Made by a program: the position numbers and the translations under genes
Notes under the pieces: generated by a model
Database searches by the model: none
What the model was told of the DNA's origin: nothing
What the model saw: only the letters and a program-made list of their open reading frames with translations
Assembly: GCA_947627255.1 (NCBI GenBank)
Contig: CANQVI010000004.1
Location: 1 to 61,547 of the forward strand
DNA length: 61,547 nt
Direction of reading: 5' to 3'
DNA from: an uncultured Clostridia bacterium
GTDB lineage: Bacteria; Bacillota; Clostridia; TANB77; CAG-465
Shown here: positions 44,874-61,547 of the stretch, piece after piece
Layout of the letters: each line of letters starts with the position of its first letter
Numbering within the stretch: position 1 is the stretch's first letter

Positions 44874-45743
44874 CTATTTACTAAATAACTTTTCCACTTC
44901 TTCAACATTAAATCTGTACTTTTTATTACAAAAATTGCAAGATAATTCTAATATTCCATTTTCTTTTGCTATTTTTAAAGCTTCTTCTTTTCCAAGTGCA
45001 ATTATTGTATTTTCAATTCTTTTTAATGAGCAATCACACTTAATAGCAGTGCTATTCTCATATACAGTTTCTATTTTCTTATCTCCAGTAGCATTTTGAA
45101 GTATATCGTCTATATTTCTTCCCTTTTTCATAAGCTCTGTCATTGACGGTAACTTCATATTAATACTTTCCAATTTATCTATTATGCTATCTTCACAATC
45201 TGGTAAAGGTTGAATTATATATCCACCTGCTTTTTCTACTTTTCCATCTTTTCCAATCAATACTCCTACAGAAACAACTGATGGTGTTTGCTCAGATACA
45301 TTGAAGTAATATGCAAAGTCATCTCCAATTTCTCCACTTAAAAGTTCACATGTACCTATATATGGTTCTTTTAGTCCAATATCTTTTATTACTGTTAAAT
45401 TTCCTAGTCCTATTCCTTTTGAAACGTCAAGTTTTCCCTCACTATTTAATGGTAACTCTACTTCAGGACTATCTATATAACCTTTTAGTTCTAATTTAGC
45501 ATTTGCACATACAACTATATTACCTAATGGTCCATCACCTTTTACTTGTACTGTTAATCTATCTTCTTGATTTTTCAAAGTTGATGCTATCATAGCAGAA
45601 ACTATCATAACTCGTCCAAGTGCTGCTGTAGCTAAATTAGATAAATTGTGTGTATCTCTTATTTCTTGTACTATTTCAGTAGCATCTATTCCCATAGCTC
45701 TTACACTTTTATCATATGCTAAATATTTTTTAATATTATTCAT
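44874..45743 (-). CDS. hslO: Hsp33 redox-regulated chaperone
   Basis: AALGR, GDGP, SEQTPS, CDCS...CNFC zinc site. Confidence 0.95.
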   Translation of the reverse strand: MNNIKKYLAYDKSVRAMGIDATEIVQEIRDTHNLSNLATAALGRVMIVSAMIASTLKNQEDRLTVQVKGDGPLGNIVVCANAKLELKGYIDSPEVELPLNSEGKLDVSKGIGLGNLTVIKDIGLKEPYIGTCELLSGEIGDDFAYYFNVSEQTPSVVSVGVLIGKDGKVEKAGGYIIQPLPDCEDSIIDKLESINMKLPSMTELMKKGRNIDDILQNATGDKKIETVYENSTAIKCDCSLKRIENTIIALGKEEALKIAKENGILELSCNFCNKKYRFNVEEVEKLFSK

Positions 45744-45844
45744 TTTCTACTCCTTATTTGCTGTATATATTTTACCAAAATTATGTTATTTTTTCAATAT
45801 TATATATATGATAAAAAGGTAAAGTAAAAAATTACCTCTAATTT

Positions 45845-46303
45845 TTACTCTACCTTTTTAGAATTTGATTTTCTTTTCTTTATAGTTTTTGTTAATGTTA
45901 TAATTGTCCCTTCATTTATTTTAGAATCTATTATTACTTCATCCATAAATGATTCCATAATTGTAAAGCCCATACCAGCATGTTCATTTTCTGGCTTTGA
46001 TGTATAAGCAGGTGTTGTAGCAAGTGCTATGTCTTCTATTCCTTTTCCATAATCTATGACTTTTATTATTATTTTTTCTTCATCCCTTATCCAGGCCTCT
46101 ACTGTTACTATACTCTCTGTATCTTCTTGACCATAACCATGATCTATTGCATTACTTACCGCTTCAGATAAAGCAGTTTTAATATCCATCAGTTCATCAA
46201 AATGAATATTTATAGTAGATAAAAAAGATGTTATTCCTACACGTATACTAGCTATATTTTCACTTCTAGATTTTGACTCTATTTTTATATAGTTCTCATT
46301 CAT
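45845..46303 (-). CDS. spoIIAB: anti-sigma F factor SpoIIAB
   Basis: IKTALSEAVSNAIDHGY, D.GKGIEDI..A..P.YTSKP, GMGFTIMESFMD. Confidence 0.92.
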   Translation of the reverse strand: MNENYIKIESKSRSENIASIRVGITSFLSTINIHFDELMDIKTALSEAVSNAIDHGYGQEDTESIVTVEAWIRDEEKIIIKVIDYGKGIEDIALATTPAYTSKPENEHAGMGFTIMESFMDEVIIDSKINEGTIITLTKTIKKRKSNSKKVE

Positions 46304-46598
46304 ATTGCACACACTCCAAATTTATATTAGAAAGTTCTATCATTCTCTTTATATTTTTACTAGCATTTATAACTTTCATTTTAGAATCTAATAATCTAAT
46401 TAAATTATATCTTCCAAGTATTAAGCCTATGCCACTACTATCCATAAATTTTACATCAGATAAATCTAAAACTAATTCATACGGTTGAAATTTCATTATA
46501 TATCCATCTATTACTCCTCTTATTATTTTGCAAGAATTCATATCTAGTTCTTCTTCTAAGTATATAGTAAGTTTTCCATTTAGATAGTTATATTTCAA
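46296..46598 (-). CDS. spoIIAA: anti-anti-sigma F factor SpoIIAA
   Basis: STAS fold, FMDSSGIGLILGRY; overlaps the spoIIAB start. Confidence 0.92.
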   Translation of the reverse strand: MKYNYLNGKLTIYLEEELDMNSCKIIRGVIDGYIMKFQPYELVLDLSDVKFMDSSGIGLILGRYNLIRLLDSKMKVINASKNIKRMIELSNINLECVQYE

Positions 46599-46689: not shown

Positions 46690-47463
46690 CTAAGGATTTT
46701 TTACGAGTCTTGCTTGTACTACAAATCTTCCATCTCTAATAGAATAATCGCAAGTAGATAAAGTTAGTATACTATCTGCTGCTGTTACTTCAACTTCTGT
46801 TGAATATCTACTCTTTCCAGCTACACTTTTAATAAAGTCACCATATTCAGACATAGAATCAAAAACTGTATCTATATAATAAAACTTAGTATCTGTTGTA
46901 TATACACTAAAGATTTCATATGTATATGTTCCCTCTGTCGTAGCAAGTTCTATATATTTATGTTTGTCAAAAAACTCTTGTCTTTTATAGTTTAAAAGTG
47001 GTGTAAATCTATTATCTGTTTCTGTATTGTGTCCATATATTATTAAATTAGTCATATTGCTAGCTAATTGCTTTATGTCGCATCTATAGTCTAGATATGT
47101 TTCTCCCCAATTTTGAGTTATTCCATCTCTATCTTCTCTATAATATCTTGTATTATCTGTTCCTTGAAATACAGGATAATCTATTGATGTACCTGGTACT
47201 TTAATCCAAGCAACAGCATCTTTATATGTTACATTTATTTTAGAAATTTCTTCTGCTAAATTTCTTCCTTCTTCTTTAGATGTTTTTACTTCTGCATCTT
47301 CATTTCCTATAAATATATCCCAACCTAATTCTTCACCAGGTTTTTCAAGTTTGCTATCTGTAATCATATTATTTATAATTAATGCACCGACACCAATTAT
47401 AGCCATTAATATTATTATTACAACTAAAATTATAAATCCAATATTATTTTTCTTTTTTGCCAT
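46690..47463 (-). CDS. srtB: class B sortase
   Basis: N-terminal TM, WIKVPGT.IDYPV.Q..DN..Y, IYGHN, LTLSTC, GR. Confidence 0.9.
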   Translation of the reverse strand: MAKKKNNIGFIILVVIIILMAIIGVGALIINNMITDSKLEKPGEELGWDIFIGNEDAEVKTSKEEGRNLAEEISKINVTYKDAVAWIKVPGTSIDYPVFQGTDNTRYYREDRDGITQNWGETYLDYRCDIKQLASNMTNLIIYGHNTETDNRFTPLLNYKRQEFFDKHKYIELATTEGTYTYEIFSVYTTDTKFYYIDTVFDSMSEYGDFIKSVAGKSRYSTEVEVTAADSILTLSTCDYSIRDGRFVVQARLVKNP

Positions 47464-47567
47464 ATTAGCCTCCAACAAATTAAGTAAATTATACCATATA
47501 ATATTTGTTAGTTCAACAAAGTAAAATAAAAAATTCTACTCTTTAAGAATAGAATTTTTTACTAATA

Positions 47568-56041: not shown

Positions 56042-57091
56042 TTATAATATATTATATTCACATGCTCTAATTAATCTATTCATTATAGCTGTTCCTATCA
56101 GCTTTTTTTCAACACCTTCAACAATACACAAATCTATGTCTAAATTGTCTATATTTCTTAGTAATGAGAAAATGTTTTTAGATATACCCATTAGATTATT
56201 TTTCTTAGCTATAGTTATGCACTTTATCCCCATTTTCTGATACTCATTTTCATGTTCTTCAAAGCATATTATTCCAACTTTTTTGTTTGTATTTTCAGAT
56301 ATATATTCTTTTACTTTATTTATCATTATTGAATCATCACTATTATATTCTAATAGTATTGTCTTAGTCTTTGGTGCATAGTGTCTATGTTTCATTCCAG
56401 GAGACTCTACTTTTTCTCCTTCTTTTACATCTTTAAAAATATGCTCATCAAGTTTTGCATTTATACCAAGATTTAAAATATCTTCTATAGATATTTTACC
56501 TGGTCTTAATATTCTTACTGTATTATCTTCTTCAACCTTTAATACTGTTGATTCAATTCCAATGTTTGTACTTCCACCATCAACAAATATATCTACTTTA
56601 TCTTTTAACTCATCATATACATCTTCTAGTTTTGTGCCACTTGGTCTTCCTGATACATTTGCACTTGGTGCTGCAATAGGAACACCGGCACTTTCTATAA
56701 TACTTAATGCAATATCATTGTCTGGCATTCTAATTCCAACTGTTTTAAGTCCTGCTGTAACATTTTTAGGTAATATATCTTTGCTCTTTAAAATTATAGT
56801 CATAGGTCCAGGCCAAAAATTTTCAATGAGCTTTTTTTCAATGTCATTTACATCTTCGGCAATGCTATTTAACATTTTTATATTACTTATATGAACAATT
56901 AACGGATTATCTTGTGGTCTACCTTTTGCTATAAATATTTTATCTACAGCCTCTTTATTAGTAGCATCAGCACCAATTCCATATACTGTTTCAGTAGGAA
57001 ATACAACTACTTTTCCCATTTTTATATTCTGAGCTACATTATCCAATTCTTCTTTTTTTATGTTTTCTTTAAAATTATAAATTACACTCAT
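56042..57091 (-). CDS. tsaC: L-threonylcarbamoyladenylate synthase (Sua5 type)
   Basis: PTETVYG, KGRP.DNPLIVH, APSANVSG.PS, SPGMKHRHYAP, C-terminal SUA5 domain. Confidence 0.95.
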   Translation of the reverse strand: MSVIYNFKENIKKEELDNVAQNIKMGKVVVFPTETVYGIGADATNKEAVDKIFIAKGRPQDNPLIVHISNIKMLNSIAEDVNDIEKKLIENFWPGPMTIILKSKDILPKNVTAGLKTVGIRMPDNDIALSIIESAGVPIAAPSANVSGRPSGTKLEDVYDELKDKVDIFVDGGSTNIGIESTVLKVEEDNTVRILRPGKISIEDILNLGINAKLDEHIFKDVKEGEKVESPGMKHRHYAPKTKTILLEYNSDDSIMINKVKEYISENTNKKVGIICFEEHENEYQKMGIKCITIAKKNNLMGISKNIFSLLRNIDNLDIDLCIVEGVEKKLIGTAIMNRLIRACEYNIL

Positions 57092-57131
57092 TTTCCTATT
57101 CTCCTATAAATATTATAGCACTAAAGTCAAA

Positions 57132-57163
57132 TAAGCTCAGAAAGTTATTACTTTCTGAGCTTA
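57132..57163 (-). terminator. hairpin or terminator after the mini LPxTG gene
   Basis: TAAGCTCAGAAAGT/ACTTTCTGAGCTTA 14-bp stem. Confidence 0.7.
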
Positions 57164-57193
57164 GAATAAAACATTTTAAAACATTCTATTGTT

Positions 57194-57373
57194 TTATTTT
57201 TCCTCGTCGATGAAATCATCATCTTTAAAATCTTTCAAATCGTCATTTTTATTTTCTCTTAGTGTACAAAATATGACGTAACCTATGACAAACACAACTG
57301 TCACAGCTAAAATAATTAATCCATTTGTACTGAATAAGCCACCTGTTACAGGCAAAGTTAAGTTATTTTCCAT
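57194..57373 (-). CDS. 59-aa stand-alone LPxTG sorting-signal protein (not in ORF track)
   Basis: AAGGAGAGG RBS plus ATG; MENNLTLPVTGGLFSTNGLIILAVTVVFVIGYVIFCTLRENKNDDLKDFKDDDFIDEEK; resembles the C-terminus of the protein ending at 60017. Confidence 0.8.
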   Translation of the reverse strand: MENNLTLPVTGGLFSTNGLIILAVTVVFVIGYVIFCTLRENKNDDLKDFKDDDFIDEEK

Positions 57374-58418
57374 TGTCTACCTCTCCTTATGGCTAAAATA
57401 TTATATTTTAGATATACATTCTTCAAGTATTAGATTTTTTTATTACTATATACTGTATCGTATGGTTATACTTGACTAAAAACTTATACTAAATATATTA
57501 AAAAGTTTTTTAGTATAACTTAGTATAGACTTTTATATATATAACATTCATCATGCCATAATAGTAATAAGTCTTATACTTTATATAAGCATACTACTTT
57601 AGAGATTAAGTTTAATCTCTATATAATAGTATTATTTACATGATCATATATCTTTACTATACAATACCTATAATATAAATTTTTGCTATATTAAAATATA
57701 GCTTTTTGTAGATTCTATTCAAACTATAATATTTAAATTATTGAGCTCTCACTAATAGAAATACAATTCTATCTTCATTTATAATATTTATCTCTTTTTT
57801 AAACTTATAATTCTTCAATTATCTACTTAAAATATCAACCTCTCTTCCTATACGAAATATTAATAGTTATAATATTTAAAACATATAAACACATATTTTT
57901 AATCAATTAAAAATTCTTTCCGTTCATTTTTTCCTCTTTAATTTAATTCATACTTTTTTTATACGTTTTTATTAAACTTATAATTACATACTTATCTTTT
58001 TAATACTATACCTCAAATTTTTTCCCACACCTTTTATTCCATTTCATACTAATGTGGAGTTATTACAATTATTTTTCTATAGTGTTGGGGGAACTATATA
58101 TGTTTAGTGTATAACCAATTCTATATTATAATATCAAAAATAATAATCACATTTTTATAAGTTGTGTTTCTATCTTAAATAATTATATTTCATATTTATA
58201 TAACCTCATAATTATCAATTATTAATATTTATTTGTTACTTGAATTCTAGCATATTATTTTTTATGATTCAACACTCTTTTAGTATAATTATGTAGTCTT
58301 TTGCTGCTGAATTTATTGTATTTTGTCATTTGTTACGCTAATGTATAATTTATGTAATATATGACTAGTTTTTTAAGATAAAAATGTTGTTTTTTGTTGA
58401 TATTTCAACATTTTAGCA

Positions 58419-58460
58419 TAAAAAAAGTACTAATATTTTATTTAATATTAGTACTTTTTT
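58419..58460 (-). terminator. intrinsic terminator
   Basis: AAAAAAGTACTAATATT/AATATTAGTACTTTTTT. Confidence 0.85.
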
Positions 58461-58462
58461 AC

Positions 58463-59899
58463 TTATTTTTTCAAGAAAGAATCCAAAGAATCAATGTTTA
58501 TGTCTAGACTTACTGAGTCGTCTTCTGATACAAGGTTTGCCTCATATCTGTTTTGATTTAGTAAATAATCTTTTGGCACATCATAAATTTCAATATAATA
58601 TTTGCCAAGTGGTAGTCTAAACTCATTTGATTTTGAATATCCATCAACGTCTTGTAAAAGTTTTTCTGCCTCATTATATAGCTTATATTTTACGCCATAT
58701 ACTTCGTTTCCTTCACCATCTTTAAAGTTTAATTTCAAATCTGCTACCTCAACATTATCATACATTGCTGTAACTGTTTTTGAAACTAGATCCTTTGGTG
58801 TTAGAACTGCATACCTCTTTTGCTTATCTCCTGCAGAATAAATTCTTGTATATAGTACTTCAGCATTAACTTCTACATTTAGTTGTGAGAAATATTTCTC
58901 GTTTCCAACAATTTTTACATAGAAAGGTTCACCAGTTTTTACATTAGATATTTCGTTTCCGTCTTTGTCTACTGTATACGCTTTACTTTCATCATAAAAG
59001 CTATTTACTTTAAAAGTAGTCGTATAGTTTAATAATTCTGGCGAATTCTTGTGAAATGTTTTCAAGTCATCATCTATTGTTGTTTTAGTATAAAAAGGTC
59101 CTATTAAAGTCTCATTTCCATTATCCACAATATCTACTTGATCAGTTACAAATGAAGAACTGGTATCATCTTCGTAGGTATCTTCAATAGCAAGTTGAAC
59201 TAATTGTTTAGCCTTTTTTATTACCCTATTTACCATATCTTCATATTGTTCTTCACTAGCATTAATCTTGTCTAATGAAAATGTTCCGTTAGAGATTCCT
59301 TCTATACCTTGTCTTGAAATCATTTCATAAACTGCAAGCTGTGTTGCCATATATGCTTCTTCTTCATTTTTTAGTCCCATCTCCTCATAGCTTACATATG
59401 GATACCCATTTAATAATATAGTCGTTACCTTTTCAGTTGTTAAATAATGAGTATATACTACTTCACCTTGTGGAATTGTGTCGTTATTATACGTTACAGA
59501 ATAAGCAACATTACCATCGATTTCAGTATAAGCAGTTTTTACATATATATTATTGATACTATCTGTCATATACCTTGTCAAATCTCCTGCAACTATAGTC
59601 GCTCTTTCTCCATCAGGTATCTCTACCTTACCACTTGAAGTAGCATTTGGGCTTGCATTATTATTTGGCTTATCCATTTCAAACTGTTTAATTAAGCATA
59701 CTACTGTTACTCCTAGACAAAGGATAATAATTAATGACACGAGTATTCTTTTTTTTCTTGTTATAGACATTTCCTTTCTATTTGCTTCTGATAATTGTTT
59801 TTCTTCCTCCATCTTCTTTAAAGCGGCATCAGTAAAAGCAAATCTCATAAAGCGCTCCTTCAATCGTCCAATAGTTTCTTTAACTTTATTGGATTTCAT
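58463..59899 (-). CDS. N-terminally anchored thioester-domain (TED)-like protein with C-terminal CnaB/SpaA-like domain
   Basis: One N-proximal TM; NGYPY..EEMG..EAYMATQLAVY (TQxA-type motif); C-terminal LPLGKYYIE...PKDY domain; no sorting signal. Confidence 0.75.
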   Translation of the reverse strand: MKSNKVKETIGRLKERFMRFAFTDAALKKMEEEKQLSEANRKEMSITRKKRILVSLIIILCLGVTVVCLIKQFEMDKPNNNASPNATSSGKVEIPDGERATIVAGDLTRYMTDSINNIYVKTAYTEIDGNVAYSVTYNNDTIPQGEVVYTHYLTTEKVTTILLNGYPYVSYEEMGLKNEEEAYMATQLAVYEMISRQGIEGISNGTFSLDKINASEEQYEDMVNRVIKKAKQLVQLAIEDTYEDDTSSSFVTDQVDIVDNGNETLIGPFYTKTTIDDDLKTFHKNSPELLNYTTTFKVNSFYDESKAYTVDKDGNEISNVKTGEPFYVKIVGNEKYFSQLNVEVNAEVLYTRIYSAGDKQKRYAVLTPKDLVSKTVTAMYDNVEVADLKLNFKDGEGNEVYGVKYKLYNEAEKLLQDVDGYSKSNEFRLPLGKYYIEIYDVPKDYLLNQNRYEANLVSEDDSVSLDINIDSLDSFLKK

Positions 59900-60016: not shown

Positions 60017-61547
60017 TTAGTCTTCTTTTTTAGCTTCTAGTAGTCTCATGCATCCATATCCTAAGATACTTATTAATGCTACTGCTAGTACTATTATCAT
60101 GTTATCGCTTACCATTCCACCAGTTTTTGGTAATGAATCTTTTTGGTTGTATACTATTGCTTCAATTAAGTCATCGTTATCTACAATGCTAAATTCATGT
60201 TCAGTAGTATCCATTATATATCCAACTGGAGCTTCAATTTCTTTGAAGTAATATTTACCATAAGGTAATTTACTAGATTCAGCTATACCATTTTCATCTG
60301 TTACTATTTCTTCAATAACTTCTTTGCTTTCATTTAAGATTGCAAATTTTACACCAGCTATTGGAGTTTTAGTTCCATCTTCTAATTTAAGTATTTTTAA
60401 TTGTCCTTTATTGTAGTAGTTTACTACTCTTTCAATTACATTTTGTCCATCTTCTTCTATTGTGAATTTATGTAATGAACTATCTACAATTAATCCTTCT
60501 GGAGCTTCTAACTCTCTATAGTAATATGTTCCTTTTTCTAATTCTTCAGATTCAGCTCTACCAGTTTCATCTGTAGTCATATAGCATACATGTTTTTCGT
60601 CTAAATCTAAGATTTCGAATTTAACACCTGCAAGTGGGTTTTCACTTTCGTCTACTTTTATAATTACTAATTTACCATGTTTAATGTCGTTTACAACTGT
60701 TTTAGTTACAATTTGACCATTATCATTTAAAGTAAATTCGTGTTCTTCAGCATCCATGATTACATTTTCTGGAGCTTCAGTTTCTTTATAATAGTAAGTT
60801 CCTAATGGTAAATCTTTTGATTGAGCTTCACCATTTTCGTTTGTTACTATTGTGTCTACTACTTGTTTATTAGCATCTAATATATCGAATTTAACATTTG
60901 AAAGTTTAGAACCATTGCTATCATATTTAACAATTTTTAATTTACCATGTGCTAAGTGGTTAACTACAGTAACAGCTTTTATTTCACCTTTATTAGTGAT
61001 TTCAAATGGATATTCAGTTCCATCTAATATATATCCTTTTGGAGCTTCTATCTCTTTGTAGTAATAGCTTCCTGGCTCTAATTCTTGAGATACAGCTATA
61101 CCTTGAGAATTTGTAGTTACTGTTTCTATAACTTGTTTATCTGAGCTTAAGATGTTGAATTTAACATTTGCTATTGGTTTATTGTCATCTCCAACTTTAG
61201 TAATTTTTAAAGAACCTTTAATTTTTTCATTAACGATATCTTTTCTAATTACTTGGTTATTTTCAGTAATGCTAAATTCATGTTTTTGTGTATCCATTAT
61301 AACATTTTCTGGAGCTTTTGTTTCTTGATAGTAATATTTACCATATGGTATATTTGCAAGACCAGCTCTACCTAAATTGTTAGTTGTTAATGTTGATACA
61401 ACATTTCCATTTTCATCTGTAATTTCAAATTCTACACCTTCAATTGGTGTTTTCTCGTCATCTGTTTTTTCTATTAATAATGTACCTTTATATCTAATGT
61501 TAGTTACAGTTTTATAGAATGTTCTGTTTTCTGCATCAACTGTAAAT
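60017..61547 (-). CDS. cell-wall-anchored CnaB/SpaA isopeptide-repeat surface protein, 5' end outside the window
   Basis: Frame open to the window edge; at least five ~90-aa repeats (G.L.I.K..D...L.GVKF.I...TT...G.A....L..G.YY..E..AP..Y); C-terminal LPKTG, TM and charged tail. Confidence 0.92.
   Translation of the reverse strand, partial: FTVDAENRTFYKTVTNIRYKGTLLIEKTDDEKTPIEGVEFEITDENGNVVSTLTTNNLGRAGLANIPYGKYYYQETKAPENVIMDTQKHEFSITENNQVIRKDIVNEKIKGSLKITKVGDDNKPIANVKFNILSSDKQVIETVTTNSQGIAVSQELEPGSYYYKEIEAPKGYILDGTEYPFEITNKGEIKAVTVVNHLAHGKLKIVKYDSNGSKLSNVKFDILDANKQVVDTIVTNENGEAQSKDLPLGTYYYKETEAPENVIMDAEEHEFTLNDNGQIVTKTVVNDIKHGKLVIIKVDESENPLAGVKFEILDLDEKHVCYMTTDETGRAESEELEKGTYYYRELEAPEGLIVDSSLHKFTIEEDGQNVIERVVNYYNKGQLKILKLEDGTKTPIAGVKFAILNESKEVIEEIVTDENGIAESSKLPYGKYYFKEIEAPVGYIMDTTEHEFSIVDNDDLIEAIVYNQKDSLPKTGGMVSDNMIIVLAVALISILGYGCMRLLEAKKED

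Follow-up and report, generated by a model that had tools for sequence, protein, structure and literature searches.

The window, which is the whole 61,547-nucleotide stretch of DNA analyzed here, belongs to a genome of 1.40 Mb in 66 contigs with a GC content of 27% (G000). Near one end of the window, on the minus strand, resides a gene of 59 codons, referred to here as the mini-gene, together with a long non-coding spacer and two genes for surface-type proteins; a sortase gene lies further along the same strand. The features that matter for the discussion below are as follows.

46690..47478, minus strand: class B sortase (TIGR03064, 183.6 bits against a cut-off of 153.75)
57132..57163, minus strand: terminator-like hairpin of 14 pairs with a loop of 4, directly 3′ of the mini-gene stop
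57194..57373, minus strand: mini-gene, ATG start, 59 aa, stop codon TAA at 57194-57196
57374..58462, minus strand: non-coding spacer of 1089 nt, GC 19%, between the TED-like gene and the mini-gene
57380..57388, minus strand: ribosome-binding site AAGGAGAGG, ending 6 nt before the ATG of the mini-gene
57421..57427, minus strand: CTTGAAG box, -35-like and followed by an A/T-rich -10-like stretch, invariant in a 12-species alignment of the spacer
57999..58138, minus strand: candidate structured RNA (core), in which three helices form a nested domain with a C-rich loop; coordinates hand-converted from alignment A2
58244..58272, minus strand: conserved promoter-like site (TTGAAT-17-TAGAAT, with TG) that precedes the structured RNA
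58463..59899, minus strand: TED-like protein of 478 aa with a basic N-terminus and transmembrane segment, a thioester-type domain and one SpaA/CnaB-type domain, no LPXTG
60017..61546, minus strand: SpaA-repeat adhesin (its C-terminal 509 aa), with an LPKTGG signal of the same class and a short basic tail

The product of the mini-gene, MENNLTLPVTGGLFSTNGLIILAVTVVFVIGYVIFCTLRENKNDDLKDFKDDDFIDEEK, is laid out as a 6-residue N-terminus, LPVTGG (of which LPVTG forms residues 7-11), a linker, a transmembrane helix, LRENK and an acidic tail bearing an FxDDDF[VI] motif. A sequence-only reading of the window had described a 59-aa frame of LPVTGG, helix and acidic tail with its own ribosome-binding site and hairpin, and all of these elements are confirmed in the sequence. 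Its statement that the product has neither a signal peptide nor a cargo domain also stands, as the motif has just six residues ahead of it and the reading frame spans no more than 60 codons from stop to stop; this frame is closed one codon 5′ of the ATG, so that a longer form is impossible. Given the local base composition, chance alone would leave a 59-codon frame open with a probability of about 0.003. The hairpin at 57163-57132 is the only terminator-like hairpin found within 57000-58600, against a mean of 0.1 in shuffled sequences. The putative promoter of the mini-gene is placed at the CTTGAAG box, an element that is missing from the site list of a consensus promoter scan.

Within its own genome, the mini-gene product has matches to long surface proteins only, in their C-terminal sorting signals. 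The adhesin ending at 60017 gives the best of these, with 40% identity over residues 6-45 (E 2e-5), and the likeness to the C-terminus of this nearby adhesin that had been seen by eye is thus real. In Pfam and NCBIfam, the sorting-signal models PF00746 and TIGR01167 gave no report for the product at E <= 1, and the matches returned were unrelated membrane families only, all under their cut-offs. Such a profile test is weak here, because the neighboring adhesin's own signal also falls short of the cut-offs (13.2 vs 15.9 bits and 13.6 vs 20 bits).

Comparison with relatives reveals that the mini-gene is conserved as a separate gene. A protein search covered 78 genomes of the family, comprising 49 of the genus, including G000, and 29 of five other genera. 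A stand-alone frame was found in 15 of the 48 other genus genomes, matching residues 1-57/59 (3-58 in one genome) within stop-to-stop frames of 60-112 codons, and a stand-alone match was found in 0 of the 29 genomes from the other five genera. The ATG resides at the homologous place, and the frame is open, in all 16 bearers; a GAGG-type site precedes the ATG by 6-9 nt at most of the 15 other loci and is weaker at a few. In all 120 pairwise comparisons pN is lower than pS (Nei-Gojobori). Between G000 and its nearest relative, G005, there are 19.5 synonymous and 10.5 nonsynonymous differences, corresponding to dS 1.03, dN 0.08 and a dN/dS of 0.08, and very close pairs give ratios of 0.04-0.10. 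Over seven pairs picked for small overlap on the tree, 123 synonymous differences at 246 sites stand against 130 nonsynonymous differences at 948 sites (Fisher p 5e-31). The start codon, the GAGG site, an N-terminus of 5-6 residues and [LM]PxTGG have been kept in 16 species with dN/dS far below 1. The sequence-only reading had allowed that relatives might present the segment only as the end of a long protein, with start codon and ribosome-binding site not kept; the segment instead stands alone in 16 genomes. Its central proposal, a sorting-signal gene free of cargo, is upheld by this conservation with start codon and ribosome-binding site under purifying selection. It is highly probable that the mini-gene is a real, selected gene that originated from the sorting signal of an adhesin.

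The family to which the mini-gene belongs is real but narrow. A profile of the family retrieved 69 small proteins, mostly of 59-75 aa, from a collection of 5.8 billion proteins. These derive from Clostridia MAGs, some being present on hundreds of contigs, and are either unnamed or called "hypothetical protein", which is also how NCBI annotates the two named members. The family is judged narrow because a search of 1.84 billion cluster representatives yielded no more than 28 proteins at E <= 0.001, of which two represent full-length stand-alone clusters and the others are C-termini of long adhesins or fragments. The best matches in the ESM Atlas (0.80-0.83) are unnamed clusters of 59 and 62 aa that are possibly the protein's own. 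A search for longer homologues, made by a weak method, returned only P0076, a TED adhesin of 1442 aa (E 1.3e-6).

An alignment of 18 sequences (A1) contains the invariant residues M1, P8, T10, G11, G12, S15, T16, I20, Y32, F35, R39, N41, L46, F49, D53 and F54. Motif and topology were counted over 51 full-length stand-alone members. In these the motif reads [LM]PxTGG, with M in the first position in 33 and L in 18, and with x represented by V (37), Y (6), E (4), I (2), N (1) or S (1). Among the 69 database members, 64 contain xPxTGG; [LM]PxTGG begins at residue 6 or 7 of the small proteins, and is found further in where an upstream start has been called or where the record is the end of a longer protein. 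The remaining five carry MPVIGG (once) or MHVTGG (twice), entries that represent either sequence errors or tolerated variants, or are fragments or chimeras (two). Sortases cleave LPxT/G of cell-wall sorting signals, and fixed P, T, G and G positions around a free x would be the pattern expected from sortase recognition. The product is probably still a sortase substrate. The prevalence of M in place of the canonical L at the first position counts against this cleavage reading, the acceptance of MPxTG by any sortase of G000 being conjectural.

The transmembrane helix consists of about 20 hydrophobic residues (19-38) and is followed by LRENK. According to the positive-inside rule, basic residues that flank a transmembrane segment mark its cytoplasmic side. 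No K or R precedes the helix in 48 of the 51 members, and every member has at least three in the 12 residues after it (three or four in 50 of the 51). Because the basic residues lie only after the helix, the product is predicted to be N-out/C-in; in this orientation LPxTGG would face the exterior, as far from the membrane as it is in a normal precursor. It is conceivable in principle that the acidic tail is instead the end that crosses the membrane. Classical signals finish in a short basic tail, but that of the mini-gene family is long and net acidic, having about nine D/E on average and a length ranging from 21 residues in the mini-gene product of G000 up to 37 in G004 and G031. Its motif, approximately FxDDDF[VI], is shared with the giant adhesins described below and with the end of the 990-aa TED adhesin P0072. 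In several relatives (L018 and L019 from G004 and G031, P0038-P0043 and P0057) the motif is tandemly duplicated in the form (G/E)FxDxDFV, yielding versions of 67-75 aa. The motif is absent from the other sorting signals of G000, and a search of that genome for other proteins with it gave five pattern matches, none of them convincing.

The distribution of constraint along the protein bears on which part is being selected. The pN/pS ratio is highest in residues 2-6 (0.57), followed by the motif (0.33), the transmembrane helix (0.29), the linker (0.23) and the tail (0.19). One proposal is that the gene yields, via a precursor, a peptide of 10 residues (fMet...LPxT) that a sortase either links to the wall or releases as a signal. 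The fixed N-terminal length of 5-6 residues in the 51 full-length members, in which M-E/D-x-N is common, is consistent with such a product, but residues 2-6 are less constrained than any other region and the proposal assigns no role to the conserved tail. It is very unlikely, and of the three mechanisms offered in the sequence-only reading it fits least, because it is precisely these residues that are the most free to vary. A second possibility is a small membrane protein that operates independently of sortase, its helix and acidic tail having been exapted, with LPxTGG serving a structural purpose or with the protein inserted N-in and thereby out of reach of sortases. The strong constraint on tail and linker, the duplication of the tail motif in some species, the frequent M in the first motif position and the missing anchor-model match all speak for this possibility. 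It is nevertheless rather unlikely, given that the motif varies in the manner of a sortase motif, that the distribution of basic residues predicts N-out and that the length of the N-terminus is maintained in all 51 members.

Similar comparisons can be extended to the surroundings of the mini-gene. All 12 other stand-alone loci that were read widely share the gene order of the window: an LPxTG adhesin of about 800-1000 aa, the TED-like gene, an ORF-free spacer of 1.0-1.5 kb, the mini-gene and, usually, sua5-adk-map. What follows the mini-gene, or the giant adhesin described below, varies. Locus L044 (G004) has a YrdC-like form of 204 aa, not the usual 349-aa Sua5; in L040 (G041) the mini-gene is followed directly by adk; and L035 (G044) contains an extra ORF of 142 aa. 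Where intact, the TED-like gene has 459-485 codons. In the window, its protein begins with a basic, predicted-cytoplasmic N-terminus of about 55 residues and a transmembrane segment, not with a cleavable signal. The thioester Cys is replaced by Ser in this protein and by Ser or Ala in its orthologues (L038-L049), with the TQxA Gln context kept. All of these proteins retain a single SpaA-type domain and stop, at slightly varying places, at the point where one would expect a sorting signal to come next. Frameshifts break the TED-like gene in G025 and G030, and its first ~97 residues are missing in G041 (three of 15 loci); one further TED-like locus ends at a contig end. The mini-gene is intact in all 15. 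Because these genomes are MAGs, assembly errors are possible at the broken TED-like genes. A pairing of the mini-gene product with the basic N-terminus of its TED-like neighbor was also considered; this idea loses weight because that N-terminus is poorly conserved and because the TED-like gene has frameshifts in genomes whose mini-gene is intact.

The likely source of the mini-gene is seen in four genomes of the genus (G024, G044, G036 and G009), where its residues 6-57/58, acidic tail included, form the end of giant TED adhesins of 1817-2364 codons (the G036 giant being incomplete, as its frame ends at a contig end). Each giant follows an adhesin gene, G044 and G009 having one extra gene between the two, and precedes sua5 (adk in the case of G036); another small gene separates the giant from sua5 in G044. 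The giants carry 15-20 CnaB/SpaA-type repeats and a true thioester domain, with TQxA in all four and a Cys in the context TAYC[VI]DY in the three complete ones (G036 ends short of this site). Their tails are 55-64% identical to the mini-gene product, and their N-terminal 80-400 residues are only 25-28% identical to the 478-aa TED-like protein.

In a tree of Map, Adk, RpsM and InfA, the 16 genomes with the mini-gene make up one side of a branch supported at 100/100 and the genomes with giant adhesins lie outside it, the tree giving no resolution on the giants as the sister group of the mini-gene clade. Every genome with at least 85% identity in RpoA has either the mini-gene or the giant form. 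Sua5 identities rank the genomes differently from RpoA. One split in the ancestor of the clade, with retention in every sampled descendant, is the simplest history. At this locus an ancestral TED fibrillar adhesin ended in LPxTGG, a transmembrane helix, LR(D/E)(K/N)K and a tail with the acidic motif FxDDDF[VI]. Its body shrank in the clade ancestor to an anchorless TED-like protein of 465-485 aa, a non-coding element of 1.0-1.2 kb came to lie between body and signal, and the signal acquired its own ATG and ribosome-binding site. These steps are shown by, or follow directly from, the comparisons above. The more mundane suspicion that the mini-gene is a detached remnant of a decayed gene is correct as to origin, given that four giants carry the segment as their C-terminus, and incorrect as to decay, given the purifying selection.

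The spacer itself is also conserved. In the aligned species it starts with a hairpin and a T-run right after the TED-like stop. It can be aligned over its whole length with 12 other species at 66-75% identity; in the closest of these, the synonymous sites of the mini-gene differ at 56%. Strong matches to the spacer occur in exactly the 15 other mini-gene-bearing genomes among 77, with spacer and mini-gene found together in 16 of 16. Rfam returned nothing for the spacer at E <= 1 and only four unrelated sub-threshold matches at E <= 10, and a tblastn comparison with the repeats of the giants found no remnant of them at E <= 0.01. For the RNA at 57999..58138, 18 of 44 predicted pairs change on both sides, compared with 6.9 +/- 1.7 in shuffled alignments (0/500) and 3-8 in slid controls, a result biased in favor of the structure in that the structure was derived from the same alignment used for covariation. 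Pairing is found in 96.7% of cells, and several invariant G:U pairs fit the strand of the mini-gene only. The spacer thus holds a candidate new structured RNA that occurs only in the 16 genomes with the mini-gene.

Evidence at the RNA level comes from the contigs assembled from one public library, which are strandless and may include carried-over DNA. One contig (57206-57589) covers 168 of the 180 bases of the mini-gene ORF and 216 nt upstream, without differences, at a depth of 3.9; another (57840-58213) covers the core of the structured RNA and is the deepest at 21.7. Contigs also lie on the TED-like gene, and they leave sua5, adk and 57590-57839 uncovered, parts that are given no weight as evidence. 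No joints were seen in the contigs over this region. A role of the spacer as an intron or a bypassed segment was considered and set aside, with no Rfam intron family, group I and group II included, at E <= 10 and no joints in the RNA contigs.

These data bear on two further alternatives. In dual-function RNAs of the RNAIII/hld type, a structured regulatory RNA is paired with a small ORF, and the arrangement described here is reminiscent of it in that a conserved structured RNA and a small ORF occur on one strand and always together. The mini-gene might accordingly be the coding part of a dual-function or long-leader RNA in which the RNA is the main actor, or a type I toxin-like peptide held in check by the RNA. 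The covarying structure on the same strand, its constant association with the mini-gene and the extension of the ORF contig 216 nt 5′ of the ATG agree with such a role. However, purifying selection at the amino-acid level means that the mini-gene protein itself matters. The mini-gene further differs from the RNAIII/hld type in having a known ancestry and only a putative common transcript with the RNA. Type I toxins are small hydrophobic peptides, toxic when over-expressed, that an overlapping or adjacent antisense RNA controls. The mini-gene product resembles them only in its size and its single transmembrane segment; it has an acidic tail, not a basic one, and the homology to adhesin signals already explains the sequence. 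This alternative, in either version, is highly improbable. The other alternative is that the mini-gene is no longer functional, being what is left of a decayed adhesin gene, or that it forms the 3′ exon of a gene split by a self-splicing intron. It would account for the adhesin-tail origin and for a TED-like ORF that stops where the signal should come. It is at odds with a frame open in all 16 genomes despite the low random expectation, with a dN/dS of about 0.1, with an ATG that is kept and a GAGG-type site in most genomes, with the hairpin and T-run after the TED-like stop in the aligned species, and with the lack of Rfam introns at E <= 10 and of joints in the RNA contigs. This last alternative is close to refuted.

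Six sortase genes are present in G000, three of class B, one of class C and two without a class assignment. A class B sortase had been reported about 10 kb from the mini-gene, and its score for TIGR03064 confirms that assignment for 46690-47478. Directly downstream of it is a gene for a 155-aa HATPase_c protein (45845-46312), flanked by ORFs of 100 aa and 289 aa; this set, at 44874-46598 of the window on the minus strand, presumably resembles the genes for an anti-sigma kinase, an anti-anti-sigma factor and a sigma factor. There are seven HATPase_c matches in G000, of which three, in frames of 404-499 aa, were judged to be of kinase size.

A second class B sortase, on contig C19 (L052, 10756-11625), has a predicted-cytoplasmic N-terminus of about 40 residues that ends in a Lys-rich patch. 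Its identity to the corresponding enzymes is 64-77% in the 15 other genomes with the mini-gene, 49-53% in three of the four genomes with giants and at most 41% elsewhere. Genus genomes also contain matches of about 30% identity to the C19 sortase that share a contig with the adhesin locus, at a distance of about 10 kb, and these are taken to be counterparts of the sortase at 46690-47478. The C19 sortase may be dedicated to the acidic-tail signal, or its co-distribution with that signal may be explained by plain shared ancestry. Controls for the distance of the giants disagree: Sua5 places them farther than other genomes, RpoA places them nearer, and the four-protein tree gives no resolution. 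A shared origin can thus explain the pattern, and the link to this sortase is a lead only. A complex prediction for the C19 sortase (alignment A3) and the mini-gene product (A1) scored 0.02, compared with a mark of 0.32, and carries no weight in either direction.

The sorting signals of G000 comprise an LPxTGG class, which includes two adhesins and the mini-gene product, an LPDT[GAS]D class and several other variants. Members of the first class share LPxTGG followed by xxS(T/D)(D/N). Signals of the form (L/A)PDT[GAS]D, with short basic tails, make up the larger class and are found on very long proteins (contigs C1, C2, C17, C18, C39, C57 and C64) in which ITNEKAPE precedes the motif; several of these proteins end at contig ends, which suggests that repeats break their assembly. 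Membership in the same signal class as two adhesins, and a position adjoining the adhesin cluster with its own terminator-like hairpin and conserved promoter-like box, would suit a decoy or buffer, that is, a cheap substrate that titrates sortase or keeps the acyl-enzyme turning over and in this way tunes the anchoring of neighboring LPKTGG adhesins. A decoy would need a motif and a transmembrane segment only, however, leaving unexplained a tail that is the most constrained part of the protein and is common to the parent adhesins, and this role is quite unlikely.

Relative to the canonical LPXTG signal (PF00746, TIGR01167), the mini-gene product has the pentapeptide, the Gly next to it, the hydrophobic helix and the basic residues after the helix, and it is homologous to the C-termini of TED adhesins from four genus genomes and of P0072. 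It differs in being the product of a separate gene with no signal peptide and no cargo, in having a net acidic tail of 21-37 residues with FxDDDF[VI], and in scoring under the family models. Judged by these features, the mini-gene product descends from, and appears to work like, an LPXTG sorting signal, yet it fails the context features of that family. A limited literature search found no described stand-alone sorting-signal gene.

The reading preferred here, though by a modest degree of confidence, is that the mini-gene encodes an orphaned sorting signal that is inserted N-out and cut by sortase, and whose stub or tail is the functional part. Coat-type proteins such as that of Pf3 are small, N-out/C-in and single-span, and they depend on YidC and use no signal peptide. 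The mini-gene product is not homologous to them, but it is of similar design: a short N-tail of about 18 residues that is acidic or neutral, a single transmembrane segment and basic residues on the C-side. It is predicted to insert in the same manner. Insertion of this kind would expose [LM]PxTGG at the outer surface of the membrane in just the way that a normal precursor does, and a sortase (probably of class B, of which there are three) would then cut between T and G. The short N-terminal peptide would be disposable. The selected product would then be the membrane stub with its cytoplasmic acidic motif, in the capacity of a membrane-resident signal or a partner-binding module, given that the tail is the most, and the N-terminal stretch the least, constrained part. 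The chances that function resides in the stub or tail, and not in the peptide, are put at roughly even.

A precedent for a functional stub comes from streptococci, the original study of which is reportedly that of Hall et al. (2019). In Streptococcus gordonii, C-pep is the membrane stub left by sortase A cleavage and is sensed by the histidine kinase SGO_1180, through which it reports on the processing of adhesins (PMC11502775, PMC11326707). As these accounts are read here, C-pep acts via its transmembrane segment, and a conserved cytoplasmic motif is not part of the precedent. The expected cleaved form of the mini-gene product, a transmembrane stub starting with Gly and continuing into a cytoplasmic tail, would be similar; C-pep, in contrast, is there a by-product of full adhesins, whereas the mini-gene would exist solely to make the stub. 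A C-pep-like stub would explain why selection acts on the stub. Conceivably, the stub acts in the way of the sortase-cleaved C-peptide of streptococcal adhesins, and the clade kept it after the adhesin body was lost; a lineage dependent on the stub would keep its coding part under these circumstances. By analogy, C-pep-like signaling in particular is possible though doubtful. A still more specific version, which is unlikely, holds that the mini-gene is a dedicated "C-peptide gene", born by the split of a TED adhesin and kept for its signaling half alone, in which the acidic tail of the stub would report sortase or wall-sorting capacity to a cytoplasmic or membrane partner and the always-linked RNA would control it or cooperate with it.

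Overall, the mini-gene shows clearly how a targeting signal can be exapted to become a gene, and it illustrates that ORFs of fewer than 60 codons can hide real genes. Sorting signals are usually viewed as disposable address labels, and here is one that has outlived its protein, kept as an independent gene by purifying selection throughout a clade whose synonymous sites have reached saturation. This conservation suggests that the membrane stub of a sorting signal may have a job of its own, and it provides evolutionary evidence that the stub remaining after cleavage, notably its cytoplasmic tail motif, can have an independent function. The linked structured RNA is a second, independent lead. As a natural and predicted minimal sortase substrate, the mini-gene product would be suited to tests of C-peptide signaling outside the streptococci.
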